Source: Myxococcota bacterium (lineage in GTDB: Bacteria > Myxococcota_A > UBA9160 > PR03). Taken from it: DNA of 64,000 nucleotides. Shown here piece by piece: positions 23,621 through 56,124 of this stretch. How positions within the stretch are numbered: the stretch's first letter is position 1; every line of letters starts with the position of its first letter. Made by a program: the position numbers and the translations under genes. The notes beneath the pieces were generated by a model, which was given only the letters and a program-made list of their open reading frames with translations, was not told the origin of the DNA and ran no database searches. The stretch spans positions 3,448 to 67,447 of the forward strand of contig DATJPY010000103.1 of NCBI GenBank assembly GCA_035506135.1, written 5' to 3'.

Positions 23621-23660
23621 GGGCCTCGATCTTCGTGGGCCTCGATCTTCGTGGGCCTCG
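23621..23660. repeat. Exact 16-bp tandem duplication GGGCCTCGATCTTCGT, two full copies plus a partial third
   Basis: Copies at 23621-23636 and 23637-23652, and a partial GGGCCTCG at 23653-23660. It sits in the 422-nt intergenic region upstream of porin 1. Confidence 0.9.
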
Positions 23661-23929
23661 GCCCCTCGGGCCTTACCCGAGTCGGTCGTCGAGGGGTCGG
23701 AGTTCTCGGTGGAGGGGCTTCGCACGGTGCCCGGCATGTTACGCGGGATGGGTGGTGCCCGCGGCTTCGTCGCGGTCGGCCAGCCAATCCGGTGTCGGTC
23801 TGGAGGGAGCGGGCTCGTCAGGGGGGTGAGTTCGCAGCGCGCGAGATCGATGAGCGTGTCGATTTCGCCACATCCAGGTTTCTGACTGGATCCAGGCCGT
23901 CTCGAGGCACGCGACAAGGAGGGGTACGG

Positions 23930-25405
23930 ATGCGATCGCGGTGGATCGTCGCGCTTTCGACTCTCGGCATCATCGGATTTGCTCTGTCCGGCCTCGCGCC
24001 GTCGGCCCGAGCGGACGACGACGCGACCCAGGCCCAGCTCAAGGCGATGCAGGACCGCATGCAGTCGATGGAGGACCAGCTCCAGGCTGCGAACAAGCGG
24101 GTGGACGATCAGCAGGATCTGATCCAGCGCTCGGGTCTCTCGGAGACGCGCGGGTCGAGCTCGGGCCTGCCGGGCTTCCTGGGGTCGATCGACATCGGCG
24201 GCTGGGTGTCGGCCAGCTACTTCTACAACGTCAACGACCCGAACGACCACCAGAACCCGGACGGCGGGCTCAAGAACACCAACATCGGCTTCTCGGGGCA
24301 GAACCCGCCGCCGAATAGCTTCGGCACGACTCAGTACAATCCCAATTCGCCGCAGTTCTACCCGACGACCCCGGACCACAACAGCTTCTCGCTCGATCAG
24401 CTCTGGTTCGAGATCGAGCGCAAGGTGAGCGAGGAGAACCGCGCCGGCTTCCGCGCGGACATCCTGTACGGCACGGCGGCGGGGCTGCTGCCGAACAGCT
24501 CGTTCAACGGCAATCGCGCGAGCTTCGACTCGACGTCGTCGTTCTACGTGCAGCAGGCCTACGTCCAGTACCTCGCACCGATCGGCAGCGGCATCACCGT
24601 GAAGGCCGGGAAGTTCGGCGACCTGCTCGGCGTGGAGCGCGCGGGGACGATCTACAACTGGAACATCACGCGCGGCACGATCTGGACGCTGTTCGAGCCG
24701 ATCAACCACGTTGGCGTGTCCGTCGGCGGGCCGGTCGGCGACTCGGGCTTCGACTGGACACTGGCCGGCGTCAACGGCTTCAACCCGGACTCGCCCGACA
24801 TCAACGACGGCAAGTCGGTGACCGGCCACCTCGGCTGGCACAACGATCAGCTCACCGTCGCCGTGAACGGCATCTGGGGCCCCGAGAAGTTCGGGAACGA
24901 CGGGAGCCAGAACGGCGTCGCCAACGGGCTCATCAAGTGGACGCCCAACGACCGCTTCGGGATGTACCTGAACGGCGACTACGCCTGGGTGCAGGGCAAG
25001 TCGCAGGCCGCCTGGGGCCTCTCGCTGGCGGGCCGCTACGGGATCACGGACACCACCGGGATCGCGCTGCGCGGCGAGTACGCGCAGGACGTGCGGGGCT
25101 TCTTCGGCTTCACCGGCTGCGGCAGCGACTTCGGCAACCCCGCCTTCAGCGGGCAAGCGAACCTCTGCGGCAACACCGGGATCCAGACCTACGGCATCAC
25201 GCTGACGGTCGACCATCTGCTGACGGACCAGCTCATGATCCGCGGCGAGGGCCGCTACGACTGGATCGGGAAGGACAACGGCAAGCAGGACGAGTTCTTC
25301 GAGAACAACCGCTACAACCTGGCGGGCAGCAAGAGCATGCCGAACGATCAGCTCGTGTTCGGCGTCGAGCTCGTCTACAACTTCAACAAGTTCGGTGGCA
25401 AGTAG
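23930..25405 (+). CDS. Outer-membrane beta-barrel porin with N-terminal coiled coil (paralog 1)
   Basis: AAGGAGGGG SD. Signal peptide ..APSARA. Heptad segment DDDATQAQLKAMQDRMQSMEDQLQAANKRVDDQQDLI. Amphipathic beta strands with aromatic girdles (GWVSASYFYNV, FYVQQAYVQYLAP, VFGVELVYNF). Confidence 0.8.
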   Translation: MRSRWIVALSTLGIIGFALSGLAPSARADDDATQAQLKAMQDRMQSMEDQLQAANKRVDDQQDLIQRSGLSETRGSSSGLPGFLGSIDIGGWVSASYFYNVNDPNDHQNPDGGLKNTNIGFSGQNPPPNSFGTTQYNPNSPQFYPTTPDHNSFSLDQLWFEIERKVSEENRAGFRADILYGTAAGLLPNSSFNGNRASFDSTSSFYVQQAYVQYLAPIGSGITVKAGKFGDLLGVERAGTIYNWNITRGTIWTLFEPINHVGVSVGGPVGDSGFDWTLAGVNGFNPDSPDINDGKSVTGHLGWHNDQLTVAVNGIWGPEKFGNDGSQNGVANGLIKWTPNDRFGMYLNGDYAWVQGKSQAAWGLSLAGRYGITDTTGIALRGEYAQDVRGFFGFTGCGSDFGNPAFSGQANLCGNTGIQTYGITLTVDHLLTDQLMIRGEGRYDWIGKDNGKQDEFFENNRYNLAGSKSMPNDQLVFGVELVYNFNKFGGK

Positions 25406-25634: not shown

Positions 25635-25650
25635 TGGCATGGCGATTGCT
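25635..25650 (+). promoter_or_regulatory. sigma54 promoter TGGCAT-GGCGA-TTGCT (porin 2)
   Basis: Near-consensus -24/-12 (TGGCAC-N5-TTGCW), 158 nt upstream of the ATG at 25808. Confidence 0.7.
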
Positions 25651-25807
25651 GCCGATACGCCCGGCGCCGGCTGCCCGGCGGGTCGATTGCAAAAAAGTGT
25701 TCGCAAGGGCTCTCCCGAAGCGCCTTGCGCTCCGTTAAGTTACGGGTCCGCGCGTTGAGGGGACGCGGTTCGAATTTCGCAGGATGATGCGAGAAGGAGG
25801 GGTTGAG

Positions 25808-27280
25808 ATGCGTTCTCGGTGGACGGCCACATTGTTGGCCTTCGCCATGTTGGCCTTCGTTGGGCTCGCGCCGTCGGCCAGGGCGGACGACGACAGCACC
25901 CAGGCCCAGCTCAAGACGATGCAGGATCGCATGCAGTCGATGGAGGACCAGCTCCAGGCTGCGAACAAGCGCGTCGACGAGCAGCAGGATCTGATCCAGC
26001 GCTCGGGTCTCTCGGAGACACGCGGGGCGAGCTCGGGTCTGCCCGGCTTCCTCGGCTCGCTCGACATCAGCGGGTGGGCGGCCGCCAGCTACTTCTACAA
26101 CGTCAACGACCCGAACGACCACCAGAACCCGGACGGCGGCCTCAAGAACACCAACATCGGCTACTCGGGGCAGAACGGCTCGGTGAACGGCGACAACGCG
26201 AATGCACCGGGCTTCTATCCGCTGCACCCGGACCAGAACAGCTTCTCGCTCGACCAGCTCTGGTTCGGGATCGAGCGGAAGATCAGCGAGGAGAACCGCG
26301 CTGGCTTCCGCGCCGACATCCTGTACGGCACGACGGCGGGGCTGCTGCCGAACAGCTCGTTCAACGGCAACCGCGCGAGCTTCGACTCGACGTCGTCGTT
26401 CTACGTGCAGCAGGCCTACATCCAGTACCTCGCGCCGATCGGCAGCGGCATCACCGTGAAGGCCGGCAAGTTCGAGACGCTGCTGGGCGTGGAGACGGCC
26501 GAGACGATCTACAACTGGAACATCACGCGCGGCACGATCTGGACGCTGTTCGAGCCGATCAACCACGTCGGCGTGTCGATCGGCGGACCGATCGGCGACT
26601 CCGGCTTCGACTGGACACTCGCGGGTGTCAACGGCTTCGCTCCGGACTCGCCCGACATCAACGACGGCAAGTCGGTGATGGGCCACCTGGGCTGGAGCAA
26701 CAAGATGTTCACGGTTGCGCTGAACGGCATCTGGGGCCCCGAGAAGTTCGCCAACGACGGGAGCCAGAACGGCGTTGCCAACGCCTACATCAAGTGGAAC
26801 CCGACCGACCGCTTCGGGATGTACCTGAACGGCGACTACGCCTGGCAGCAGGGCACGTCGGCAGCCGCGTGGGGCCTCTCGCTGGCGGGCCGCTATGGGA
26901 TCACGGACAAGACCGGGGTCGCACTGCGGGCCGAGTACGCGCAGGACGTGAGGGGCTTCTTCGGCTTCACGGGCTGCGGCAGCAGCTTCGGCAATCCCGC
27001 GGATCCCGCCAACCCCAACTTCACAGGCGGTCCGAACGCCTGCGGCGCAACGGGGATCCAGACCTACGGCATCACGCTCACGGTCGACCATCAGCTCACC
27101 GACCAGCTGATGATCCGCGGCGAGGGTCGCTACGACTGGATCGGGAAGGACAACGGCAAGCAGGACGAGTTCTTCCAGAACAACCGCTACGACCTGGCGG
27201 GCAGCAAGAGCATGCCGAACAACCAGCTCGTGTTCGGCGTCGAGCTCGTCTACAACTTCAACAAGTTCGGGGCCCAGTAG
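25808..27280 (+). CDS. Outer-membrane beta-barrel porin with N-terminal coiled coil (paralog 2)
   Basis: Internal ATG after GAAGGAGGGG; the track ORF starts at 25784. Collinear with paralog 1, with most residues identical by eye. Differences cluster in two loop segments. Confidence 0.8.
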   Translation: MRSRWTATLLAFAMLAFVGLAPSARADDDSTQAQLKTMQDRMQSMEDQLQAANKRVDEQQDLIQRSGLSETRGASSGLPGFLGSLDISGWAAASYFYNVNDPNDHQNPDGGLKNTNIGYSGQNGSVNGDNANAPGFYPLHPDQNSFSLDQLWFGIERKISEENRAGFRADILYGTTAGLLPNSSFNGNRASFDSTSSFYVQQAYIQYLAPIGSGITVKAGKFETLLGVETAETIYNWNITRGTIWTLFEPINHVGVSIGGPIGDSGFDWTLAGVNGFAPDSPDINDGKSVMGHLGWSNKMFTVALNGIWGPEKFANDGSQNGVANAYIKWNPTDRFGMYLNGDYAWQQGTSAAAWGLSLAGRYGITDKTGVALRAEYAQDVRGFFGFTGCGSSFGNPADPANPNFTGGPNACGATGIQTYGITLTVDHQLTDQLMIRGEGRYDWIGKDNGKQDEFFQNNRYDLAGSKSMPNNQLVFGVELVYNFNKFGAQ

Positions 27281-27455: not shown

Positions 27456-27471
27456 TGGCACGCCCCTTGCT
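27456..27471 (+). promoter_or_regulatory. sigma54 promoter TGGCAC-GCCCC-TTGCT (glnB-glnA)
   Basis: Perfect consensus -24/-12, 177 nt upstream of the glnB ATG. Confidence 0.8.
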
Positions 27472-27635: not shown

Positions 27636-27986
<351 letters not shown>

Positions 27987-28048: not shown

Positions 28049-29473
28049 ATGTCCCTGAAGAACGGCAAGGAAGTCCTCGACTTCGCCAAGAAGAACAACG
28101 TCGTGATGGTCGACTGCCGCATCATCGACCTCCCTGGTCTCTGGCAGCACTGCTCGCATCCGATCGGCACGCTCCAGGAGTCGACCTTCCAGGACGGCTA
28201 CGGCTTCGACGGCTCGTCGATCCGCGGCTGGAAGGCGATCAACGAGAGCGACATGCTGATGATCCCGGACCCCACGAGCGCCTTCATCGATCCGTTCCTG
28301 GCGCATCCGACGCTGGTCCTGATCTGCGACGTGGTCGACACGCTCACGCGGCAGCCCTACGACCGCGACCCGCGCAACGTGGCGAAGAGAGCCGAGCTCT
28401 ACCTGAAGCAGAGCGGCATCGGCGACACCGCGTACTTCGGTCCGGAGGCCGAGTTCTTCGTGTTCAACAGCGTGCGCTTCGGCTCGGGGCCGAACGCTGG
28501 CTTCTACCGGATCGACTCGAACGAGGCGATCTGGAACACGGACCGCGAGGAGGATGGAGCCAACCTCGGCTACAAGATCCGCCACAAGGAGGGCTACTTC
28601 CCGGTTCCCCCGCACGACACGCAGCAGGATATCCGGACCGAGATGTGCCTCGAGATGCAGAAGATGGGGATCGAGATCGAGACCCAGCACCACGAGGTGG
28701 CGACCGGCGGCCAGGCCGAGATCGACATGGTCTTCGACACGCTGGTGTCGATGGCGGACAAGCTGCTGAAGTACAAGTACGTGGTCAAGAACGTGGCGCA
28801 CCGCCACGGCATGACCGCGACCTTCATGCCCAAGCCCCTGTTCAAGGACAACGGCTCGGGCATGCACACGCACCAGTCGATCTGGAAGGACGGCAAGCCG
28901 CTCTTCGCGGGGAGCGGCTACGCCGGGCTCTCCGACCTGGCGCTCTGGTACATCGGCGGGGTGCTCAAGCACTCGCGCGCGATCGCGGCCTTCAGCAACC
29001 CGACGACCAACTCGTACAAGCGGCTGGTTCCGGGCTACGAGGCCCCGGTGAACCTGGCGTACTCGTCGCGCAACCGATCGGCGGCGTGCCGGCTGCCCAC
29101 CTACTCGCAGAGCCCCAAGGCGAAGCGCGTGGAGGTCCGGTACCCGGACCCGGCCTGCAATCCGTACCTCGCGTTCGCGGCGATGCTGATGGCCGGGATC
29201 GACGGCGTGCTCAACAAGATCCACCCCGGCGAGCCGCTCGACAAGAACATCTACGCCCTCTCGGCGGAGGAGGCAAAGGGTGTTCCCACCATGCCGGGCA
29301 GTCTCGAGGAGGCGATCCGCGAGCTCGAGGCCGATCACGACTTCCTGCTCCAGGGAGGGGTGTTCACCGAGGACCTGCTGGACACCTGGGTCTCCTACAA
29401 GCGGGAGAACGACATCGATCCGGTCCGGCTCCGCCCGCATCCGCACGAGTTCGAGCTGTACTTCGACGTCTGA
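28049..29473 (+). CDS. glnA: Glutamine synthetase, type I
   Basis: ATG at 28049 after GAAAGGAAAG. Contains [50 protein letters not shown] and the adenylylation-loop region NIYAL. Confidence 0.95.
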
Positions 29474-45949: not shown

Positions 45950-46894
45950 CTGCGCCCGGTCCTGCTCGACACCGACATCGGCAGCGACGTCGACGACGCG
46001 CTGGCGCTGGCGGTGATCCTGGCGGAGCCCGACGCGCTCGAGCTGGTCGCCATCACGACGGTGTCGGGCGACACGCGGCTGCGCGCGCGCATCGCCGCGC
46101 GCCTGCTCGGCGTCGCCGGGCGGACGCGCGTCGACGTCTGCGCGGGCGAGGAGGCGCCGCTCCTGCGCGGGCGCGACCGCTTCGTCTGGTTCGGGCACGA
46201 GGGCAAGAGCCTGCCGGACGGGCCCGACGCCGGGCTCTCGGACGAAGGGGCGCCGGAGCGCATCGTGCGCGCCGCGCGCGAGCGCCCCGGGCTCGAGCTC
46301 GTCGCCATCGGCCCCCTCACGAACGTGGCGCGCGCGCTCGCGCTCGACCCGAAGCTCCCCGAGCGGGTCGGCGGCCTCAGCGTGATGGGCGGCCACGTGC
46401 GCGAGGTGCGCCTCGGGGGCAAGGCGCTGCCGCACGGCATCGACTACAACCTCTGCTCCGATCCCGAGGCGACCGTCGCGGTGCTGGGGGCCGGCTTCCG
46501 CACGACGCTGGTCACCGCCGACGTGACCCTGCAGACCTGGATGGGACCGGCCGACGTCGAGCGCCTCGCCGGCCGCGGCCCGCTGGCGCGCGCGCTCGTC
46601 CCGATGATCCGGACCTGGTCGGCTGTACAGCGCCGGCTCTTCGAGTCGTGGGGCGGACCCGAGCCCGACGACTTCGCGGCGTTCCTGCACGATCCGCTCA
46701 CCGCGCTGGCGCTCGTCGATCCGAGCCCCCTCCACTTCGAAAGGCTCCGCATCGTGCCGACGGTCCAGGCCGGCATCCTGCGCACCCTCGAGGCGCCGGC
46801 CGGCGGCGCGGTCGGCAGCGAGATGCAGGTGGCGACCGGCGTCGACGCGGCCGCCGCGCGCCGCGCGATCGTCGACCGCCTGGCCGCGCGCTAG
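45950..46894 (+). CDS. Nucleoside hydrolase (IUNH family); start uncertain (CTG 45950 or GTG 46013)
   Basis: The in-frame conserved N-terminal Asp cluster LLDTDIGSDVDDALALAV lies upstream of the first canonical start, GTG 46013. The rest is IUNH-like (AIGPLTNVA). Confidence 0.75.
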   Translation: MRPVLLDTDIGSDVDDALALAVILAEPDALELVAITTVSGDTRLRARIAARLLGVAGRTRVDVCAGEEAPLLRGRDRFVWFGHEGKSLPDGPDAGLSDEGAPERIVRAARERPGLELVAIGPLTNVARALALDPKLPERVGGLSVMGGHVREVRLGGKALPHGIDYNLCSDPEATVAVLGAGFRTTLVTADVTLQTWMGPADVERLAGRGPLARALVPMIRTWSAVQRRLFESWGGPEPDDFAAFLHDPLTALALVDPSPLHFERLRIVPTVQAGILRTLEAPAGGAVGSEMQVATGVDAAAARRAIVDRLAAR

Positions 46895-47649
46895 CGGCTC
46901 GGCACGACCGCGCTCGAGCGCGCTTCGTCGCGCTTCGGCGCGAAGAGCCAGGCCGCCAGAACGCCGAGCAGGTAGAGCAGGCACATCGGCACCGCGAGCA
47001 GGGTCTGGCTCACCCAGTCCGTCGAGGGCGTCAGCACGGCACCCAGGATGAAGCAGATCAGCACGGCGTACGGGAAGCCGCGCAGCAGGCGCTTCACGTC
47101 CACGATGCCGGCCGAGGCCAGAAAGAAGACGACCACGGGTAGCTCGAAGGCTGCGCCGAAGGCCAGGAACATGCTGGTCGTCATGCCGAAGACCTCCTCC
47201 ATGGTCCAGGCCGCCTGCACGAACTCGCTCTCGAAGTTGCCGAGGAAGGCGAACATCAGCGGAAACACGAACGTGTGTCCGAAGAATGCGCCCGAGACGA
47301 AGAGCACCGTCGAGACCACCACGAAGGGAACCGCGAACCGCTTCTCCTTCGGATAGAGCCCCGGTGCGATGAAGGCCCAGGCCTGCCAGAGGATCACGGG
47401 CAGCGCGAGCACGAAGCCGGCCAGCGCGGCGCCCTTCATGTAGGTGACGAAGATCTCGCTCGGCGCGATCGCCTGCAGGTGGCCCTTGGTTCCGAGCGCC
47501 GCGACCGCCGGCCGCAGCAGGTAGCGGAAGATCTCCTCCTTGTAGGTCCAGGCCAGCGCGACGCCGACGCCCCAGGCGAGGATCGAGCGGATCAGTCGGG
47601 TTCGGAGCTCGGCGAGGTGCTCCGTCAGCGGAAGCCGCGTCTCGTCCAT
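46891..47649 (-). CDS. tatC: Twin-arginine translocase subunit TatC
   Basis: Contains LTEHLAELRTRLI, six TM helices, and PSTDWVSQ. Confidence 0.93.
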   Translation of the reverse strand: MDETRLPLTEHLAELRTRLIRSILAWGVGVALAWTYKEEIFRYLLRPAVAALGTKGHLQAIAPSEIFVTYMKGAALAGFVLALPVILWQAWAFIAPGLYPKEKRFAVPFVVVSTVLFVSGAFFGHTFVFPLMFAFLGNFESEFVQAAWTMEEVFGMTTSMFLAFGAAFELPVVVFFLASAGIVDVKRLLRGFPYAVLICFILGAVLTPSTDWVSQTLLAVPMCLLYLLGVLAAWLFAPKRDEARSSAVVPSR

Positions 47650-47952
47650 CTAGCTCGAGCGCGGCTCGGCGGGCCTCGCGTCGGCGTGGGCGGCCGGTGC
47701 GGCCGTGGGCTCCGCCGGGGCCTGGCTCGCCGCGGAGAGCTGCGTGGGAGCCTGCGGTGCGGTCTCCGCCGGCCGCCCGCTCGGCTCGCGCATCGCCTCG
47801 TCGAAGGTGGAGCGCAGGTCCGTCGAGGCGCGCCGGAACTCGGCCATCGCCTTGCCGAGCGAGCGGGCCAGCTCGGGCAGGCGCGTCGGACCGAAGATGA
47901 TCAGCGCGACGACCAGGATCACGAGCAGCTCGGACATGCCGATGCCGAACAT
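47650..47952 (-). CDS. tatA: Twin-arginine translocase TatA/E-family protein
   Basis: Contains [42 protein letters not shown]. Its stop abuts the tatC ATG. Confidence 0.9.
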
Positions 47953-48036: not shown

Positions 48037-48435
48037 TCAGGCGGCGGCGACGGCCACCCTGGGCGCCCGCCGCGGCTCCTGCTCCCGCTCGGCCAGCAGC
48101 GCCACCCCCATGCGCGCCTCCCCGACCCGCCCTCGGGCGCTCCAGACGACCCGCGCGAGCGACTCCAGAGAAGGCCGGCCGTCGACGCTGCGCACGATCA
48201 CCCGAAGCAGGGTTCCGACCGCGGCGGCCTCCTCTCCGCGCAGGCACGCGCCCGCGGGCGAGAGGTCGAGGGTGAAGCCCGCCTGCCACCGCTCGTCCCG
48301 ATGGGCGCGCGGAAACGGCGCGTACTGCACCAGCCGGACGGTCGTCTCCCGCCGCACCTTGCGGAGGGATCGCGACCCCGCGGAGCTCCCGCTGCTCCCG
48401 AAATCCAGCGAGAGCTGGCCCCCTGATTCGAGCAT
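48037..48435 (-). CDS. PilZ-domain protein (candidate c-di-GMP receptor)
   Basis: ATG at 48435, 14 nt after the HD-GYP gene stop. Contains the RxxxR-type RKVRRETTVR and the DxSxxG motif DLSPAGA. Confidence 0.75.
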   Translation of the reverse strand: MLESGGQLSLDFGSSGSSAGSRSLRKVRRETTVRLVQYAPFPRAHRDERWQAGFTLDLSPAGACLRGEEAAAVGTLLRVIVRSVDGRPSLESLARVVWSARGRVGEARMGVALLAEREQEPRRAPRVAVAAA

Positions 48436-48449
48436 CTCGTGCGCCCCCC

Positions 48450-49655
48450 TCAATGGATTTGCAGCGTCGACGGCGCGGCCGACTCCGGGTCCGCATCCGG
48501 CGATGTGATGGCGTCGGCGACCTGCTCCGGGTCGACGTCGCAGGCCCCGCTCTCGACCAGCGCGAGCAGCTCCTTCACCAGCCCCGGGTCGAACTGCGCG
48601 CCCGCCTCGCGCCGCAGCTCGGCGACGGCCGCGTTGTGCGTGAGCGCGCGCCGGTAGGGCCGGTCGCAGGTCATCGCATCGAACGCGTCGGCGAGGTGGA
48701 GGATGCGCGCGGCCAGCGGCGTGGTGTCGGCCGCCAGCCCGTCCGGGTATCCCTTGCCGTCCCAGCGCTCGTGGTGATGGCGGACGGCGGCGATGAGATC
48801 GTCGCTGACGCCGAGCGGTGTCAGTAGCCGGGCGCCGATGGCGGCGTGCCGCTCGACGGCCTTGCGCTCGAGCAGCGTGAGCGAGCCGCGCCGCGTGAGC
48901 AGCTCGCTCGGGACGCCGATCTTGCCGATGTCGTGCAGGAACGCCGCGATGCGCAGCGAGCGCTTCTCGGGTCCGGCCAGGCACAGGCGGTCCGCGAGCA
49001 GGCCGCTGTAGAAGGCGACGCGCCGCGCGTGGCCGCGCATGAAGGGATCCTGGACGCCGATCGTCTCCGCCAGCATCTCGAAGAACGGGAGCGCGCGCTC
49101 CGGATCGAGCGCCTGCAGCGGCTGGATGTCGGCCGCCGAGCGCGAGAGCAGCTCGCCCAGGTGGTTGCGCAGGCGGACGTCGCTCTGCACCAGGCTGACG
49201 ACGGCGGACACGTCGGTGTCACGCCCGACCGCGTCGCCGAGGTCCGCGAGGAAGCGCACCACGCGGCGGCGGCCGCGCCGTCGCGCCATCGCGCGATACA
49301 CGGCGGCCGTGACCGACACCACATCGAACGGCTTCTGCAGGTAGTCGGAGACGCCGCAGCGGATGCCCTCGGTCGCCGAGGCCAGGCTCCCGTGGCCGGT
49401 GATCACGATCACCTCGACGTCCGAGAAGTCGCTGCGGATCGCCCGCATCAGCTCCTCGCCCTGGACGCCGGGCATCGCCAGGTCGAGGGTCACGACGTCG
49501 ATCGGCGTCGTGCGCAGGAGCTCGAGCGCCTCGGCGCCGGTCGGCACCGCGAGCACGCGGTAGGCGGTCTGCAGGATCATCCGAAGCGATTCGCGGGGAC
49601 CACGCTCGTCGTCCACCACCAGCACGGTGGCGCGGGTCGAGCTCCGATCCGTCAT
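48450..49655 (-). CDS. Response regulator with HD-GYP domain (RpfG-like c-di-GMP phosphodiesterase)
   Basis: Internal ATG at 49655 after GGGGAGGTG. REC domain VLVVDDE..TLDLAMPG. HD-GYP motifs HDIGKIGVP and HHERWDGKGYPDGL. Confidence 0.88.
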   Translation of the reverse strand: MTDRSSTRATVLVVDDERGPRESLRMILQTAYRVLAVPTGAEALELLRTTPIDVVTLDLAMPGVQGEELMRAIRSDFSDVEVIVITGHGSLASATEGIRCGVSDYLQKPFDVVSVTAAVYRAMARRRGRRRVVRFLADLGDAVGRDTDVSAVVSLVQSDVRLRNHLGELLSRSAADIQPLQALDPERALPFFEMLAETIGVQDPFMRGHARRVAFYSGLLADRLCLAGPEKRSLRIAAFLHDIGKIGVPSELLTRRGSLTLLERKAVERHAAIGARLLTPLGVSDDLIAAVRHHHERWDGKGYPDGLAADTTPLAARILHLADAFDAMTCDRPYRRALTHNAAVAELRREAGAQFDPGLVKELLALVESGACDVDPEQVADAITSPDADPESAAPSTLQIH

Positions 49656-49692: not shown

Positions 49693-49707
49693 GCAACCCG
49701 TGTGCCA
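49693..49707 (-). promoter_or_regulatory. sigma54 promoter TGGCAC-ACGGG-TTGC (HD-GYP/PilZ operon)
   Basis: The plus strand reads GCAACCCGTGTGCCA. Perfect -24/-12, 38 nt upstream of the ATG at 49655. Confidence 0.8.
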
Positions 49708-49810: not shown

Positions 49811-49824
49811 GTTCCGGACGGAAC
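49811..49824. promoter_or_regulatory. Palindrome GTTCCGGACGGAAC (candidate UAS 1)
   Basis: GTTCC-N4-GGAAC, about 110 bp upstream of the sigma54 promoter at 49693-49707. Confidence 0.45.
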
Positions 49825-49879: not shown

Positions 49880-49893
49880 GTTCCGATCGGAAC
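49880..49893. promoter_or_regulatory. Palindrome GTTCCGATCGGAAC (candidate UAS 2)
   Basis: Perfect 14-bp palindrome, 69 bp centre-to-centre from UAS 1 and 7 nt after the stop of the activator gene. Confidence 0.45.
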
Positions 49894-49899
49894 GGAGCG

Positions 49900-51318
<1,419 letters not shown>

Positions 51319-51406: not shown

Positions 51407-53344
51407 CTACGCCGCGGGCAGCTCGACCAGGACGAGCGTCTCGCCCGACTCCGAGGACTCGATGCGGAACGAGCCGCCCTGCGCGCGCACGACGGACTCC
51501 ACGGCGACCACCGCCAACGTGTGCTCCGACAGCGACAGCGCGCGCTCGGCAGCGCCGGGGCCGCCGCGGAAGCGCAACAGGATGCGGAGGCGCGGGTCGC
51601 CGACTCCCGAGCCGGCCTGGTGTCGGGTGGCGACGTACAGGTCGCCGCGATCGGAGATCCAATCGAGCGCCTGCTCGAAGAGCAGCCCGAACGCGAAGCG
51701 GAGCTGGTCGGCGTCTCCGAGCGCGAGCGGGTGCTCGCGGTCGAGCTCCTCGAGCACGACCAGTCGCCGCTCCTGGATGCGGCCGCGCTGCCGCTCGAGC
51801 AGGTGCGCCAGCAGCGCCGACACGTCGATGGATCGCCGCTCGGGCGGGCCGAGCGAGCCGAGCCGCTCGAGCGTGTCGATCGCGGCCTCGATCCGGTGCG
51901 TGTCGACCTCGACGCGCTCGGCGAACATGCGGCGGAACTCGGGGTCGTCGAAGCGACCGCCCAGCATCTGGGTGAAGCTGCGGATCCCGACCAGCGGGTT
52001 CCCGACCTCGTGGGCGACCGCGCTGACGAGGCGGCGGAGGTCCGACGGGGGGGTTGGTTGCTGAGCTGCAGCACGTCCTGATGAACTTCGCTCGGCCTCG
52101 CCTCGCTGCGCGCGCCCTTCGGGCGCTTGCTGGGGATGATCCAGGCGGTCGGGCTGCCCCGGAGGCGACGGGGGCGATCCGGACTGCCCTGACGAGGGCG
52201 GGGGGGATTCGTCCTCCACCAGCTCGGCGACGAGCTCGGGGGCGAGGGGAGGGACCGGGTCGAAGCGGAGGTCGCCGGCACCGATCGGGTCCGAGCGGGT
52301 GGCGGCGAGGGTGCGGCGGCCGACCGCCTCCAGCTCGCGCAGGTTCCCGGGCCAGGCATGCGCGCGGAGGCGGGCGATGGCGTCGGGCGCGAACTGGCGG
52401 CCCCGCTCGCCGCGCGCGGCGCTCCACTCGGCGGCGAGCCCGGTGGCGACGCGCTCGATCGCGTCCGGCCGATCGCGCAGCGGCGAGAGGCTGATCTCGA
52501 GCCCGGCGAGCGCGCGCGCGAGCTCGGGGTCGAGCGGGTCCGGATCGAGGCCCGCAGTCGCCATCCAGCGCACGCGCAGCGCGGGGAGCGCGCCCGCCGG
52601 CGGCCCCAGCTCGATCCAGCTCCGGAGCTGTCGCTGCGCGCCGCGGGGCAGGTGGTCGATGTCCTCGATGCAGACGGTCGCGAGATCGCCGGCGCCCAGC
52701 TCGCCCGTCTCGGGTACGAGCCTCGCGAAGAGCGACCGCGCGTCTGCGGCGGCGAGCGCCGACACCGACGCGAAGGGCCCCGGCGCGTCGGCCGCGCTCA
52801 TCCAGTGGACGTAGCGGGCGACCAGGCCTCGGCCGCTCCCCGGCTCGCCGCGCACCAGGAGGGGGACGTCGCGGCGGGTGGGATCGATCGCGCCGAGCAG
52901 GGCAGACGGCTCCAGGTCGCCGAGCCAGCGCCGGATGCGCGCCGCGAGGGCGTCGCGGCGGCGCCGCTCGGTGAGCGCCGCGCCGGGCCGGCGCGCGAGG
53001 GCGGAGCGCACGCGCCGCCGCAGCTCGTTCGCGTCGGCGGTGGTGGAGATCAGGGTCGCGGGCAGCGCGTCGAAGAGCCGGCGCACTTCGTCGAGATCCC
53101 GCGGCGACGCCAGCAGCACCCACAGCGGGCGCGCGGCCGCGAGTCGCGGCGCGAGCCGGTGTGCCAGCTCGAGCTCCGCCTCGAAATCGTCCGTGACGCC
53201 GAGCAGGATCGCGCGCGGCGGCGGCTCGCGCTCCAGGGCGGCGGCGTCGCACGGATCGGAGGTGAGCGCATCCACGTCGCCGGCCAGGCGCCGGAGAGCG
53301 TCGCGCCAGCCGCCGTCGCGGTGGATGATCCAGAGTCTCGCCAT
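51407..53344 (-). CDS. Atypical sensor protein: receiver-like N-terminus, degenerate sigma54-type AAA+ domain, HisKA, divergent HATPase-like C-terminus
   Basis: ATG at 53344. AAA+ remnants LLVRGEPGSGRGLVARYVH (no Walker A Lys), CIEDIDHL and WPGNLRELE, with no GAFTGA. A Pro/Ser linker is followed by the H-box VSAVAHEVGNPLVGI. The C-terminus ..LLFEQALDW.. lacks a clear N, G1 or G2 box. Confidence 0.8.
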   Translation of the reverse strand: MARLWIIHRDGGWRDALRRLAGDVDALTSDPCDAAALEREPPPRAILLGVTDDFEAELELAHRLAPRLAAARPLWVLLASPRDLDEVRRLFDALPATLISTTADANELRRRVRSALARRPGAALTERRRRDALAARIRRWLGDLEPSALLGAIDPTRRDVPLLVRGEPGSGRGLVARYVHWMSAADAPGPFASVSALAAADARSLFARLVPETGELGAGDLATVCIEDIDHLPRGAQRQLRSWIELGPPAGALPALRVRWMATAGLDPDPLDPELARALAGLEISLSPLRDRPDAIERVATGLAAEWSAARGERGRQFAPDAIARLRAHAWPGNLRELEAVGRRTLAATRSDPIGAGDLRFDPVPPLAPELVAELVEDESPPPSSGQSGSPPSPPGQPDRLDHPQQAPEGRAQRGEAERSSSGRAAAQQPTPPSDLRRLVSAVAHEVGNPLVGIRSFTQMLGGRFDDPEFRRMFAERVEVDTHRIEAAIDTLERLGSLGPPERRSIDVSALLAHLLERQRGRIQERRLVVLEELDREHPLALGDADQLRFAFGLLFEQALDWISDRGDLYVATRHQAGSGVGDPRLRILLRFRGGPGAAERALSLSEHTLAVVAVESVVRAQGGSFRIESSESGETLVLVELPAA

Positions 53345-53390: not shown

Positions 53391-53405
53391 GCAAGCGCCG
53401 TGCCA
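53391..53405 (-). promoter_or_regulatory. sigma54 promoter TGGCAC-GGCGC-TTGC (sensor/activator operon)
   Basis: The plus strand reads GCAAGCGCCGTGCCA. Perfect -24/-12, 47 nt upstream of the ATG at 53344. Confidence 0.75.
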
Positions 53406-53545
53406 GGCGCTGCGACCTCGCTGCAGCGTGCAGCCCGGCGGCAGCGCGGCCCGCAAGCGCGCACGGCCTCGCCGGAACGGTGAATCCCGCCGCCCGCCGC
53501 GCCACCGGCCGCGCGCGGCGGCGTTGGGGCAGTCTCCTATCCAAT

Positions 53546-55156
53546 GTGGGAAGGCCGCGTTCGCTGGTTGCCCGCGATTGTACCCTCTGCCAGAGTAGAC
53601 CCATCTCCCGCGCGGAGCCCGATTTGGCCGTCCTCTCCGCCGGACCCGAGGTCCGGCTCCGGAACTGGTTCGAGCGTCCCTACGACGACGCCATCGCTGC
53701 GGCCCGCACCTGCTACTCCCCGCGCGTGATCGACGCCGACGAGGTGACCGAGGGCCAGCGGCGCAACATCGGTCCGCTCACCTTCGAGGGCGGCCATCAC
53801 ACCGTCTACCAGCACGCGACGTTCGAGTTCTCGCTGTCGGGGATCTCGCGGCAGCTCGTCTGGTGCTTCCTCCACGCGTTTCCGTTCTACAACACGGAGC
53901 AGCAGAGCCAGCGCTACGTGCGGCTCGACGAGCCGCGCGCACACGTGCCGCCCGCGCTCGGCGGCGAGGCGCGGGCGCTCTTCGAGCGGAGCGTCGAGCA
54001 GGCGTGGGAGGCCTATCGGGAGCTGACCACCCGCCTCCGGCCCGTGACGCGCGCGCTCCTCGCCGAGCTCTGGCGGCTGGACCGCAAGAGCGAGGCATTC
54101 GGGCGCAACGTCGAGAAGGAGGCCGAGAAGAAGGCGATCGAGACCGCGCGCTACGTGATCCCGATCGCCTGCCACACCGCCATGGTCTACACCGTGTCGG
54201 GCATCGTGCTGCACCGCCTGCGGCGCATGGCGGCCGCGAGCGAGGCGCCCGACGAGGCCCGCGACGTGGTGGAGCGCATGCTCGCCGAGGTGGCGCGCGT
54301 CGACCCGGCGTTCTTCGTCGAGGTGGGCGAGCCGCCGCTGCGCGCGGAGGAGGCGCTCGAGAACCAGGTCGCGCCGCCGGGGCTCGGCGATGCGGCCGCG
54401 CTCGAAGCGTTCGACAAGTCGCTGGGAGGCCGCCGCTCGCGCCTGGTCGACTGGAGCCCGCGCGCGCCGCAGCTCGTGGCCGACGCGATCCGCCGCGTGC
54501 TCGCTCGGGCCGATCTCGACGACGCCGAGGCGCTGGCCCTGGCGCTCGACCCCGCGCGCAATCCGCACCGCCTCGACACGCTCAACGTGTCGGTCCACGT
54601 CCCGGTGATGCGCGCGCTGGAGCATGCCCACTACGCCTTCCGGAAGAAGCTCTCGCACGCGGCCGACTCCCAGGACCAGCGTCACCGGATGGTGTCTGGC
54701 TCGCGGCCGCTGCTCTCGCGCAGCGTGCCGGCCGCGGTCGACGTCGTCGAGCCCGAGCTGATCCGCGCCGATCCCGCCTGCCACGCGCGCTTCCGCGAGG
54801 CCGTGGAGGCCGCGTGGGACGCGCGCGCTCGCCTGCTGGCGCTCGGCGTCGCGCCCGAGCTCGCGCTCTACGTGCTCCCCAACGCGCTCGCGGTGCGCTT
54901 CGAGGAGTCGGGCTCGCTCCTGCACCTGCTCCACAAGTGGACGATGCGCACCTGCCTGAACGCACAGCGCGAGATCTACGAGGCGTCGATGGACGAGGTC
55001 GAGCAGGTGCGCGCGGTCCACCCCGAGCTGGCCCGACACGTCGGCCCGCCCTGCTTCGTGCGCGACGGGCTCGTTCGCCCGCGCTGCACCGAGGGCAGCC
55101 ACTTCTGCGGCATCCCGGTGTGGCGGAGCTTCCCGGACGTCGAGCGGCGGATCTGA
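53546..55156 (+). CDS. thyX: ThyX-family (FAD-dependent thymidylate synthase-like) protein with duplicated domain; start uncertain
   Basis: The first half has GGHHTVYQHATFEFSLSGISRQ..EQQSQRYV. The second half has HAHYAFRKKLSHAADSQDQRHRMVSGS and LNAQREI. The start is GTG 53546 or TTG 53624. Confidence 0.7.
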   Translation: MGRPRSLVARDCTLCQSRPISRAEPDLAVLSAGPEVRLRNWFERPYDDAIAAARTCYSPRVIDADEVTEGQRRNIGPLTFEGGHHTVYQHATFEFSLSGISRQLVWCFLHAFPFYNTEQQSQRYVRLDEPRAHVPPALGGEARALFERSVEQAWEAYRELTTRLRPVTRALLAELWRLDRKSEAFGRNVEKEAEKKAIETARYVIPIACHTAMVYTVSGIVLHRLRRMAAASEAPDEARDVVERMLAEVARVDPAFFVEVGEPPLRAEEALENQVAPPGLGDAAALEAFDKSLGGRRSRLVDWSPRAPQLVADAIRRVLARADLDDAEALALALDPARNPHRLDTLNVSVHVPVMRALEHAHYAFRKKLSHAADSQDQRHRMVSGSRPLLSRSVPAAVDVVEPELIRADPACHARFREAVEAAWDARARLLALGVAPELALYVLPNALAVRFEESGSLLHLLHKWTMRTCLNAQREIYEASMDEVEQVRAVHPELARHVGPPCFVRDGLVRPRCTEGSHFCGIPVWRSFPDVERRI

Positions 55157-56124
55157 TGCGCCGGCGCGCCGCCCTCCTCCTCGCCGGCTCGCTCCTGGCG
55201 GCCGCGCCGGCCGGGGCGATCGAGCTCGAGGGCACCTGGTACGTGCTCGTGCACTTCCAGGACAAGGAGTCGCCGAAGCCCGACGCGTGGCGCTGGGAGG
55301 ACCGCGTCTGGAAGTTCGAGCAGAAGGCCGACCGGCTCGAGTGGACCGACTATCCGATCGTGGTGTTCGACGACGAGAAGGGCCGCTTCGAGTCGCTCGG
55401 CAGCAATCACGCCGCGCGGGTGGTGGAGGCCTGGGAGCCGAGCGCGGCGCAGCTCGCCGACATCAAGGACGGGCTGCAGGTCAACCCGCGCGGGATGAAG
55501 ACCAAGTCGCTGCGCGCGGTGGACGGCGGCGCCGGCTGGAGCTCGAGCGAGGGCGCGAGCGGCGCCTCCGCCACGGTCATCACCTATACCGAGCACTGGT
55601 CGATCGCGGGACTTCCGGACAAGCCCGTCTTCACCCGCGACGATTCGATGAGCGGGGGCAGCACCGAGGAGCTCTCGGGCCGCACCCAGTACAAGACCAC
55701 CGAGGTGACGGCCGACGAGCTGCACGGCAGCTTCGACCGCGACGGGACGCGCATCGGCAACTTCCGCATGATCCGCTCGGGCGACACGCAGAAGGTTCGC
55801 GGCAGCGGCCTCACCCAGGACCAGCGGGTGATGCAGATGTTCGCGTCGCAGGCCGGCCTCACGTTGGATGCGGCGCAGATCCAGGCGATCACCAGCGGCA
55901 AGGTCGCGCCCGGCTCGCCGGTGCCCGACGACGTGCGCGCCGACGTGCGCGCGCAGATCCGCCAGGGCGTCGAGGAGGCGTTCCGGCGACAGAGCACGGA
56001 TCCGCGCGCCGCGAGCGCCGAGGTCGATCGCCTCACCAGCAAGATCGAGCACCTGATCCTCGACGAAGGCAAGAGCCCCGAGCAGGTCCAGGAGATGCTC
56101 AAGCGGGGCGAGGTCACGCCCTGA
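55156..56124 (+). CDS. Secreted protein of unknown function
   Basis: The ATG shares 1 nt with the previous TGA. Signal peptide MRRRAALLLAGSLLAAAPAGA. High GC3. I recognise no motif. Confidence 0.65.
   Translation: MRRRAALLLAGSLLAAAPAGAIELEGTWYVLVHFQDKESPKPDAWRWEDRVWKFEQKADRLEWTDYPIVVFDDEKGRFESLGSNHAARVVEAWEPSAAQLADIKDGLQVNPRGMKTKSLRAVDGGAGWSSSEGASGASATVITYTEHWSIAGLPDKPVFTRDDSMSGGSTEELSGRTQYKTTEVTADELHGSFDRDGTRIGNFRMIRSGDTQKVRGSGLTQDQRVMQMFASQAGLTLDAAQIQAITSGKVAPGSPVPDDVRADVRAQIRQGVEEAFRRQSTDPRAASAEVDRLTSKIEHLILDEGKSPEQVQEMLKRGEVTP

Follow-up and report, generated by a model that had tools for sequence, protein, structure and literature searches.

Gene X lies in a 64,000-nucleotide (nt) stretch of a Myxococcota bacterium contig (DATJPY010000103.1, positions 3,448 to 67,447; hereafter the window). 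It encodes a single polypeptide in which a receiver, a sigma-54 AAA+ motor and a kinase ATP-binding (CA) domain all appear catalytically disabled, while one reactive centre, a histidine, seems to be kept or dropped according to the presence of a partner gene. We favour, at a probability of roughly 0.45, the reading that X is kinase-dead and serves the NtrC-type activator encoded beside it as a two-component partner, probably as its phosphatase. The X family is real and conserved, has an unusual architecture and belongs with the pseudo-histidine kinases as a new form. To our knowledge, only a few cases of pseudo-enzymes are known in bacterial two-component signalling (DivL, RetS, ChpT and pseudo-receivers). 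An earlier note on this DNA, made from the sequence alone, knew of no characterised example of the architecture, and our literature search likewise found no description of a receiver / NtrC-type AAA+ / HisKA arrangement.

A four-module protein with degenerate catalytic sites

The longest version of the X reading frame extends to a GTG at 53464. We favour the ATG at 53344 as the start because the N-termini of the family align at M1, GAGGA lies 5 nt upstream and a sigma-54 promoter falls inside the would-be extension; the version beginning at the GTG was rejected on the first and last of these grounds. Against Pfam, the single sequence matched AAA_lid_14 (residues 290–360, 43.5 bits against a cut-off of 27) and HisKA (residues 436–498, 34.5 bits against 26.9). 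It stayed under threshold for Sigma54_activat (PF00158; 17.3 against 20.2 bits) and Sigma54_activ_2 (21.3 against 25 bits), and gave no match to Response_reg (PF00072), HATPase_c or HTH_8. With a family profile built from a 51-sequence alignment of X homologues, E-values reach 8e-29 for the NtrC1 AAA+ domain and 1.6e-15 for the DHp and CA domains of ZraS; profile residues 2–370 align to the neighbouring activator at E = 2.6e-33 in a six-sequence test set. By these E-values, the domain similarities of X are well beyond chance.

An AlphaFold2 model of X alone, with the 51-sequence alignment as input, was confident (mean predicted local distance difference test score, pLDDT, 84.5) and returned the expected folds. 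Searched against the PDB with Foldseek, the N-terminal half superposes on the receiver and AAA+ domains of NtrC1 (1ny5, E = 4e-16), NtrX, VpsR, LuxO and FleQ, and the C-terminal half on DivL (4q20, E = 2e-12), RetS (6dk7, E = 5e-12), HK853 and other DHp–CA structures. Model and profile alignments together confirm the earlier description of one 645-residue open reading frame (ORF) joining four segments, which are laid out as follows.

51407–53344, minus strand: gene X, 645 residues; pseudo-receiver, pseudo-AAA+, disordered linker, DHp (HisKA) and pseudo-CA
52994–53344, minus strand: pseudo-receiver, residues 1–117; (beta-alpha)5 domain in the model; aligns to the receiver of the neighbouring activator
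52922–52981, minus strand: Arg-rich linker helix, residues 122–141 (a helix in the model); R127, R130 and R136 invariant
52490–52909, minus strand: degenerate NtrC-type AAA+ alpha/beta subdomain, residues 146–285 (P-loop alpha/beta domain in the model); without GAFTGA loop or arginine fingers
52826–52849, minus strand: Walker A P-loop GEPGSGRG, residues 166–173; R172 replaces Lys
52265–52477, minus strand: AAA+ lid, residues 290–360 (Pfam AAA_lid_14; helical lid over 293–348 in the model); PLRDR and WPGNLRELE intact
52049–52261, minus strand: disordered linker rich in Pro, Ser, Gly, Ala and Glu, residues 362–432; pLDDT <50 over 367–432
51857–52045, minus strand: DHp/HisKA helical hairpin, residues 434–496 (two long helices in the model); Pfam HisKA and alignment to ZraS-like kinases
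52010–52012, minus strand: His445 codon, in the H-box H445-E-V-G-N449-P-L
51413–51835, minus strand: pseudo-CA domain, residues 504–644 (alpha/beta sandwich, pLDDT ~90); Bergerat-like alpha/beta fold, closest solved folds DivL, RetS and HK853

The N-terminal segment had been described as receiver-like with no acidic pocket, and the alignment agrees on both counts. Strands and helices alternate over residues 4–117 as in a (beta-alpha)5 receiver fold. The DD pair of the activator aligns to H8/R9, invariant in the 51 sequences, its phospho-acceptor D51 to G49 (Gly in 49 of 51) and the conserved Lys to a non-Lys residue. Because the DD pair, the phospho-acceptor Asp and the Lys are all replaced, we regard the X receiver as not phosphorylatable.

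The AAA+ region is degenerate in a different and highly consistent manner. The Arg that the earlier note saw in place of the Walker A Lys proves to be a family-wide trait, found at position 172 in 51 of 51 aligned sequences and in 235 of 246 in a wider alignment, where seven have Lys. Similarly, the reported absence of a GAFTGA loop, which is needed for sigma-54 contact, is confirmed by alignment to the activator: the GAFTGA/GAFTDA region of X (residues 197–221) is deleted or variable. Both arginine-finger positions (FRxDLYYRL) are non-Arg and non-conserved. Two further motifs had been listed as kept. WPGNLRELE is indeed intact, but the Walker B-like CIEDID is not a preserved Walker B: its acidic pair stands in inverted order, E227-D228 where D-E would be canonical, and conservation is only moderate (of the 51 sequences, 44 have E at position 227, and 32 have D and 14 E at position 228). 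As the Walker A Lys and both arginine fingers are absent, ATP hydrolysis by this domain is very unlikely. The lid, by comparison of its columns, is strongly conserved, with R290, R292, W331, N334 and E337 invariant and the sensor II residue R336 in 49 of 51. An Arg that never varies in Walker A, beside a lid that is intact, suggests that the domain is not merely dead but kept for some role, possibly ligand binding; with sensor II intact and the Arg-rich helix (R127, R130 and R136) invariant, it looks more like a binding site under selection than like decay. Neither Pfam nor the model gives a C-terminal helix-turn-helix (HTH); the protein ends in the DHp and CA-like domains. These follow the Pro/Ser-rich linker already remarked on in the earlier note, which is disordered in the model and ranges from 38 to 104 residues across the family.

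The DHp, on the other hand, carries an intact reactive centre. Its H-box is of the standard HisKA type, H445-E-[VL]-[RG]-N449-P-L across the family, with H445 in 51, E446 in 50 and N449 in 45 of the 51 sequences, so the claim that the phospho-acceptor His is kept holds. The domain that follows has a Bergerat fold and superposes on kinase DHp–CA structures. When it is aligned to ZraS-like kinases, the Mg-binding N-box Asn falls on Q558 (K, E or Q in the family), the G1 motif DxGxG on F-R-G-G-P and the G2 motif GxGLG on E-H-T-L-A, the ATP lid is shortened, and D568, R587, R591 and G624 appear as new invariant residues. The N-box Asn and the G1 and G2 boxes that could not be found by eye are thus truly missing, and from this motif loss we predict that X does not autophosphorylate with ATP.

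Judged by its residues, X is without those for receiver phosphorylation, AAA+ ATP hydrolysis, sigma-54 contact, HTH DNA binding and CA ATP binding; by the features tested, it does not qualify as a working sigma-54 activator, histidine kinase or receiver. The suspicion that both nucleotide-dependent modules are inactive is therefore supported: profile alignment finds no intact N, G1 or G2 box and no Walker A Lys, the AAA+ similarity itself is significant, and the losses are conserved across a large family.

Family size and distribution

Among 5.8 billion proteins searched, 171 relatives turned up, nearly all from metagenomes or Myxococcota-labelled metagenome-assembled genomes (MAGs). At least 120 are mostly full-length, at 38–77% identity, and one is identical. 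An exhaustive profile search of 1.84 billion cluster representatives (50% identity) returned ~565 proteins at E <= 1e-30, the best 150 being mostly full-length. The organism-labelled full-length members are all from Myxococcota, Myxococcales or Deltaproteobacteria MAGs, and the five found among GTDB species representatives are all from Myxococcota or Myxococcales MAGs. Overall, the domain order recurs in more than 200 full-length, collinear homologues from independent assemblies (37–80% identity), which marks a conserved family and not lesions in one sequence. The 51-sequence alignment contains 45 invariant columns, including the replacement residues R172, H8/R9 and R591; in the wider alignment of 261 sequences, R591 is found in 239 of 241.

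Scans of genomes and of metagenome contigs were dominated by the WPGNxREL motif of ordinary activators and yielded 5 and ~6 further X-family loci, respectively. Apparent AAA+/kinase 'fusions' from the genome scan (Budvicia, Morganella, Roseomonas and others) were rejected, being adjacent kinase and activator genes in different frames. We also observed a sister group of X (L011–L013), with ~35% identity over residues 4–359, that likewise adjoins thyX. Its sole complete member, L012 (1588..3840, plus strand), has a Walker A with Lys, GERGTGKL, and is without an H-box His, a sigma-54 promoter or a downstream activator gene. Although labelled 'Spirochaetales', L012 resembles Myxococcota in G+C content and synteny and may have been mis-binned.

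His445 is kept where the activator gene is present

In the window, X is followed by genes for the NtrC-type activator, a response regulator with an HD-GYP output (RR-HD-GYP), a PilZ-domain protein, TatA and TatC, and is preceded by a divergent thyX. The same gene order is seen in homologous loci, in which X identity is 37–55%. The activator had been placed 89 nt downstream of X; it does lie downstream, but the gap to its ATG at 51318 is 88 nt.

49900–51318, minus strand: NtrC-type activator; receiver, Sigma54_activat, lid and HTH_8 (Pfam); D51 and GESGTGKE; 88 nt downstream of X

The sigma-54-contacting loop of this canonical activator reads GAFTDA instead of GAFTGA.

Comparing X across loci revealed that the state of residue 445 follows the presence of this gene. 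In all 14 loci whose X bears His445 (the window, L001, L003, L004, L006–L010 and L091–L095), a full activator gene comes directly after X; in each of the five His-less loci, a full-length one is missing from that place (Fisher's exact test, ~1e-4 over the 19 loci, kinship ignored). The five His-less loci are as follows.

L086: residue 445 is R; RR-HD-GYP, PilZ and TatAC downstream of X
L087: residue 445 is T; RR-HD-GYP and TatAC downstream of X
L088: residue 445 is E; TatAC downstream of X
L089: residue 445 is A; 130-residue receiver remnant of the activator, then TatAC, downstream of X
L012: sister clade, no His; no activator gene

The remnant in L089 (5741..6133) is a stand-alone receiver that shares 55% identity with the receiver domain of the activator in the window. 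It is apparently what remains of an activator after loss of the AAA+ and HTH parts.

His445 has changed state many times within the family. We built a neighbour-joining tree of 219 cluster representatives from which the DHp and linker columns were left out; parsimony gives at least 16 changes on it, and loss of the His therefore appears recurrent. Within the wider alignment, His445 is found in 202 sequences and another residue (R, E, A, Q, T, D and others) in ~41. A His-less fraction of ~17% is unusual, given that only 0.9% of HisKA domains are without His according to a review of pseudo-receivers (PMC12632262).

We then compared positions conserved at >=90% in His-containing members with their frequency in 36 His-less members. 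Along with the His, the H-box and the DHp surface collapse (N449 to 6%, F470 to 29%, F474 to 33%, T456 to 53% and R484 to 56%), and the pseudo-receiver becomes less conserved on its pseudo-active-site face (H8 61%, R9 56%, G49 67%, E57 64% and W75 67%). The P-loop is retained, with G166, E167, G169 and R172 at 92–100%. Also retained are the lid (W331, N334 and E337), R259, R290, E533, D568, R587 and R591; the P-loop, the lid and the D568/R587/R591 set together stand at 86–100%. Since the DHp decays with His loss while the pseudo-AAA+ and pseudo-CA residues persist, X would seem to have two separable functions, one tied to the activator (the DHp and perhaps the pseudo-receiver face) and one independent of it (the pseudo-AAA+ and pseudo-CA domains). 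The changes of His state, at least 16 in number, amount to a natural dissection that predicts which surfaces serve the partner and which a second function. Taken with the distribution over loci, the joint decay of the H-box and DHp surface supports the earlier proposal that X regulates the downstream activator.

A probable phosphatase of the activator

We propose that X dimerises via its DHp and docks the receiver of the activator, where the H445-E-x-x-N449 centre would strip the phosphoryl group from the receiver Asp, acting as a phosphatase, possibly with transient back-transfer to the His. The activator would be phosphorylated by an unlinked kinase or a small-molecule donor, and X would set the duration of its activity. 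The pseudo-receiver and pseudo-AAA+ half could serve as the regulatory input; conservation of the P-loop and lid may mark a site for ligand binding or oligomerisation through which access to the DHp is controlled. X would be transcribed from its own sigma-54 promoter together with the activator, which in turn would drive the sigma-54 promoter of the RR-HD-GYP, PilZ and TatAC genes through GTTCC-N4-GGAAC sites.

In a passage of the pseudo-receiver review that cites Willett and Kirby 2012 (PMC12632262), the residue at H+4 of the HisKA E/DxxT/N motif is tied specifically to phosphatase activity. That residue in X is N449, Asn in at least 90% of His-containing members. We favour a phosphatase because N449 shares its conditional selection with the His, because a DHp alone can suffice for phosphatase activity, as in EnvZ, and because no phosphodonor is consistently encoded nearby.

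Several observations weigh against this proposal. A phosphatase, a forward phosphotransferase and a phosphoryl-independent binding protein look alike by sequence. The ~17% of family representatives without His keep the rest of the protein, which argues that the core function of the pseudo-AAA+ and pseudo-CA domains would be independent of phosphoryl chemistry and of the neighbouring activator. L089 has lost the His yet retains the receiver-only remnant of its activator. X still has its sigma-54 promoter in loci that have no activator gene, so control of X by the neighbouring activator cannot be assumed. The association between His445 and the activator is drawn from 19 loci with their kinship ignored. 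Finally, some HisKA phosphatases need a CA-bound nucleotide, which is impossible in X.

Two other readings share the activator as the partner of X, and we consider each unlikely, though still a serious competitor. X might be a dimeric His phosphotransferase like ChpT or Spo0B, with His445 taking a phosphoryl group from another receiver (that of a hybrid kinase elsewhere or of the operon's RR-HD-GYP) and passing it forward to activate the activator. A DHp with a conserved His joined to a CA-like domain unable to bind ATP is the layout of ChpT (PMC3433190), the operon has two canonical receivers and no ATP-competent kinase, and the His state co-varies with the presence of the activator. However, no phosphodonor is consistently encoded, and the His-bearing loci L003, L008, L010 and L093 gave no RR-HD-GYP match; conversely, L086 and L087 have an RR-HD-GYP without an activator, yet the His is lost. 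A relay also does not account for the joint selection of the phosphatase-linked Asn449 with the His, and both ChpT and Spo0B are missing from the matches listed for X, 50 from Foldseek and the best 60 by sequence. Alternatively, and with about the same low probability, X might be a phosphoryl-independent anti-activator or scaffold acting as NifL does on NifA, by forming mixed inactive AAA+ oligomers or by sequestering the activator on its DHp and pseudo-CA domains, the His being only structural or used in docking. This would suit the homology of its N-terminal 370 residues to the receiver, AAA+ domain and lid of the neighbouring activator, as well as the lid and P-loop, which are the most conserved parts of X and persist without the His; the C-terminal fold matches include DivL and RetS, pseudokinases that act by protein–protein contacts (PMC4211667, PMC8498467). 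Yet a purely structural His would not be expected to vanish with E446, N449 and the DHp surface exactly upon loss of the activator gene, and X persists even in loci where no activator lies beside it to be inhibited.

The remaining alternatives are far less probable. X could be an active but unorthodox kinase, in which the Arg P-loop presents ATP to His445 or the divergent CA-like domain binds nucleotide in some other way. Given the invariance of E167, R172 and the glycines of the P-loop, and a sensor II R336 that is largely conserved, a phosphate-containing ligand may bind; but X has no Walker A Lys, arginine finger or N, G1 or G2 box, its ATP lid is shortened, and a disordered linker of 38–104 residues separates the AAA+ domain from the DHp. 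We know of no precedent for such a kinase and consider it very improbable. That X is an artefact or a decaying relic, a frameshift fusion or a pseudogene, could be suspected from the missing catalytic residues in three of its four domains, and the earlier note had raised the case of two genes split by a sequencing frameshift. The numerous collinear, full-length homologues from independent assemblies rule this out, as do the invariant replacement residues, the confident model and the conserved promoter and synteny, and we give the idea next to no weight.

The phosphatase proposal leaves room for a further, more speculative role for the N-terminal half. The pseudo-receiver, Arg-rich helix and pseudo-AAA+ domain may form a dedicated small-molecule sensor that gates the phosphatase or phosphotransfer site of the DHp, an idea we rate as a long shot. 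The GExGxGR P-loop, sensor II, the lid and R127/R130/R136 would then bind a nucleotide second messenger, for instance cyclic di-GMP (c-di-GMP), or ADP or ATP without hydrolysis. With HD-GYP and PilZ as outputs, attractive candidate ligands would be c-di-GMP or a nucleotide; were the sensor to exist, an HD-GYP phosphodiesterase and a PilZ receptor among the outputs would close a c-di-GMP-to-sigma-54 feedback loop. It would be a new principle in signalling for an AAA+ ATPase core to serve a histidine (pseudo)kinase as its ligand-sensing input, and an Arg P-loop that senses a ligand would offer a new input route to sigma-54-dependent transcription.

Promoters and candidate activating sites of the operon

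The exact sigma-54 consensus TGGCAC-N5-TTGC has three matches in the 64 kb of the window, against 0.03 expected. The third lies upstream of glnB (PII) and glnA (glutamine synthetase), a classical sigma-54 target. It therefore serves as a positive control that validates the motif scan and indicates that the organism uses sigma-54. These promoters, the palindromes discussed below and the remaining genes of the operon are positioned as follows.

53391–53405, minus strand: sigma-54 promoter (-24/-12) TGGCACGGCGCTTGC; ends 46 nt upstream of the X ATG
49880–49893, no strand assigned: palindrome GTTCCGATCGGAAC, GTTCC-N4-GGAAC; distal candidate upstream activating sequence
49811–49824, no strand assigned: palindrome GTTCCGGACGGAAC (plus-strand reading), GTTCC-N4-GGAAC; proximal candidate upstream activating sequence
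49693–49707, minus strand: second sigma-54 promoter TGGCACACGGGTTGC; ends 37 nt upstream of the RR-HD-GYP gene
48450–49655, minus strand: response regulator with HD-GYP (HD_5) output, putative c-di-GMP phosphodiesterase (Pfam)
48037–48435, minus strand: PilZ-domain protein (Pfam PilZ, 30.9 bits); syntenic PilZ genes in homologous loci
47650–47952 and 46891–47649, minus strand: tatA and tatC (Pfam); always downstream of X within the family
27456–27470, plus strand: third exact sigma-54 promoter TGGCACGCCCCTTGC; upstream of glnB (27648..27986) and glnA (~28050..29473)

The promoters of X and of the RR-HD-GYP gene are conserved in position in homologous loci, and that of X is conserved also in loci without the activator. 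The two differ in what lies upstream. One or two copies of GTTCC-N4-GGAAC occupy the equivalent place upstream of the second promoter in L001, L004, L008, L010, L092, L093 and L095; with the window, this makes eight activator-bearing loci that have the palindrome, compared with none of four activator-less loci. GTTCC-N4-GGAAC is thus a good candidate for the upstream activating sequence of the activator. Upstream of the X promoter there is instead a different conserved dyad, GGGAA-N-TTCCCA-like, which persists in the absence of a neighbouring activator. We considered autoregulation of the X promoter by the activator and found it unsupported: promoter and dyad persist without the activator, so we do not claim it, and GTTCC-N4-GGAAC occurs only at the second promoter. 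With its two sigma-54 promoters, candidate upstream activating sequence and HD-GYP, PilZ and Tat outputs, the operon forms a defined circuit within a lineage of uncultured Myxococcota.

Neighbouring regions of the window

The intergenic region between thyX and X (53541..53595) contains two conserved non-coding blocks, CTCTCGCAGA next to the thyX start and the GGGAA-N-TTCCCA-like dyad ~130–150 bp upstream of the X sigma-54 promoter, which forms perfect palindromes in L088 and L010. Both blocks are shared by L001, L004, L007, L009, L010, L086–L089, L092 and L096, and persist without the activator. The divergent ThyX (Thy1; ~53630..55156, plus strand) has ~508 residues and two matched Thy1 stretches, about twice the usual ThyX length. 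Orthologues of 511–529 residues occur in most related loci, and the long form suggests a fused tandem ThyX. Downstream of thyX, a 322-residue protein (~55120..56124, plus strand) has a signal-peptide-like N-terminus and no Pfam match; unannotated genes for proteins of 264–328 residues hold the same syntenic position in L001, L004, L086 and L087.

Elsewhere in the window lie two tandem paralogous genes for OmpL-like beta-barrel porins (23651..25405 and 25784..27280, both plus strand), the second with a match to Pfam BBP2. The G+C content of this stretch is 66–67%, compared with ~72% for the window. A sigma-54-like site with one mismatch, TGGCATGGCGATTGC (25635..25649), lies upstream of the second porin gene.

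Comparison with known systems

By analogy, X would work most like DivL, RetS, ChpT and Spo0B, and the logic of its operon resembles that of NifL–NifA. ChpT of Caulobacter and Spo0B of Bacillus share with X a phospho-His DHp hairpin followed by a Bergerat-like domain without ATP binding; the atypical Bergerat fold of ChpT does not bind ATP, and the protein has no autokinase activity and acts on receiver domains (PMC3433190). Unlike them, X has an activator-derived N-terminal half of ~360 residues, a long disordered linker and a standard HisKA HExxNPL H-box of the NtrB/ZraS/AtoS type, and its partner would be a sigma-54 activator. In DivL and RetS, as in X, a DHp–CA module has been repurposed for regulation instead of autophosphorylation. 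DivL, however, has Tyr in place of His, whereas the X family keeps the His in 83% of its members. DivL and RetS receive PAS or periplasmic inputs and act on other kinases (CckA and GacS); the input of X is an activator-like module, and X is linked to an NtrC-type regulator.

Receiver-type inputs to a C-terminal HisKA are also found in NmpS of the NmpS/NmpR pair and in LvrB. NmpS is a receiver–kinase hybrid and the cognate active kinase of the NtrC-like NmpR in Myxococcus xanthus (PMC6211767). NmpS autophosphorylates and has an Asp that can be phosphorylated, in contrast to the pseudo-receiver, additional pseudo-AAA+ domain and dead CA of X. For the N-terminal half, NtrX, VpsR and TyrR provide the parallel of receiver and NtrC-type AAA+ cores that are without GAFTGA and unable to contact sigma-54; NtrX and VpsR are among its best fold matches. 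These three are transcription factors that retain both a DNA-binding domain and the Walker A Lys, whereas X has a Walker A Arg, is without arginine fingers or an HTH, and carries a DHp and pseudo-CA at its C-terminus.

The arrangement of the X operon resembles that of NifL–NifA, in which a sigma-54 activator is controlled by a histidine-kinase-derived protein whose gene lies directly upstream and is co-transcribed with that of the activator. The GHKL domain of NifL binds ADP and its His is unused, and NifA has a GAF domain in place of a receiver. X differs from NifL in that its CA-like domain is without any nucleotide-binding motif, and its His is kept exactly where a receiver-containing activator is present.

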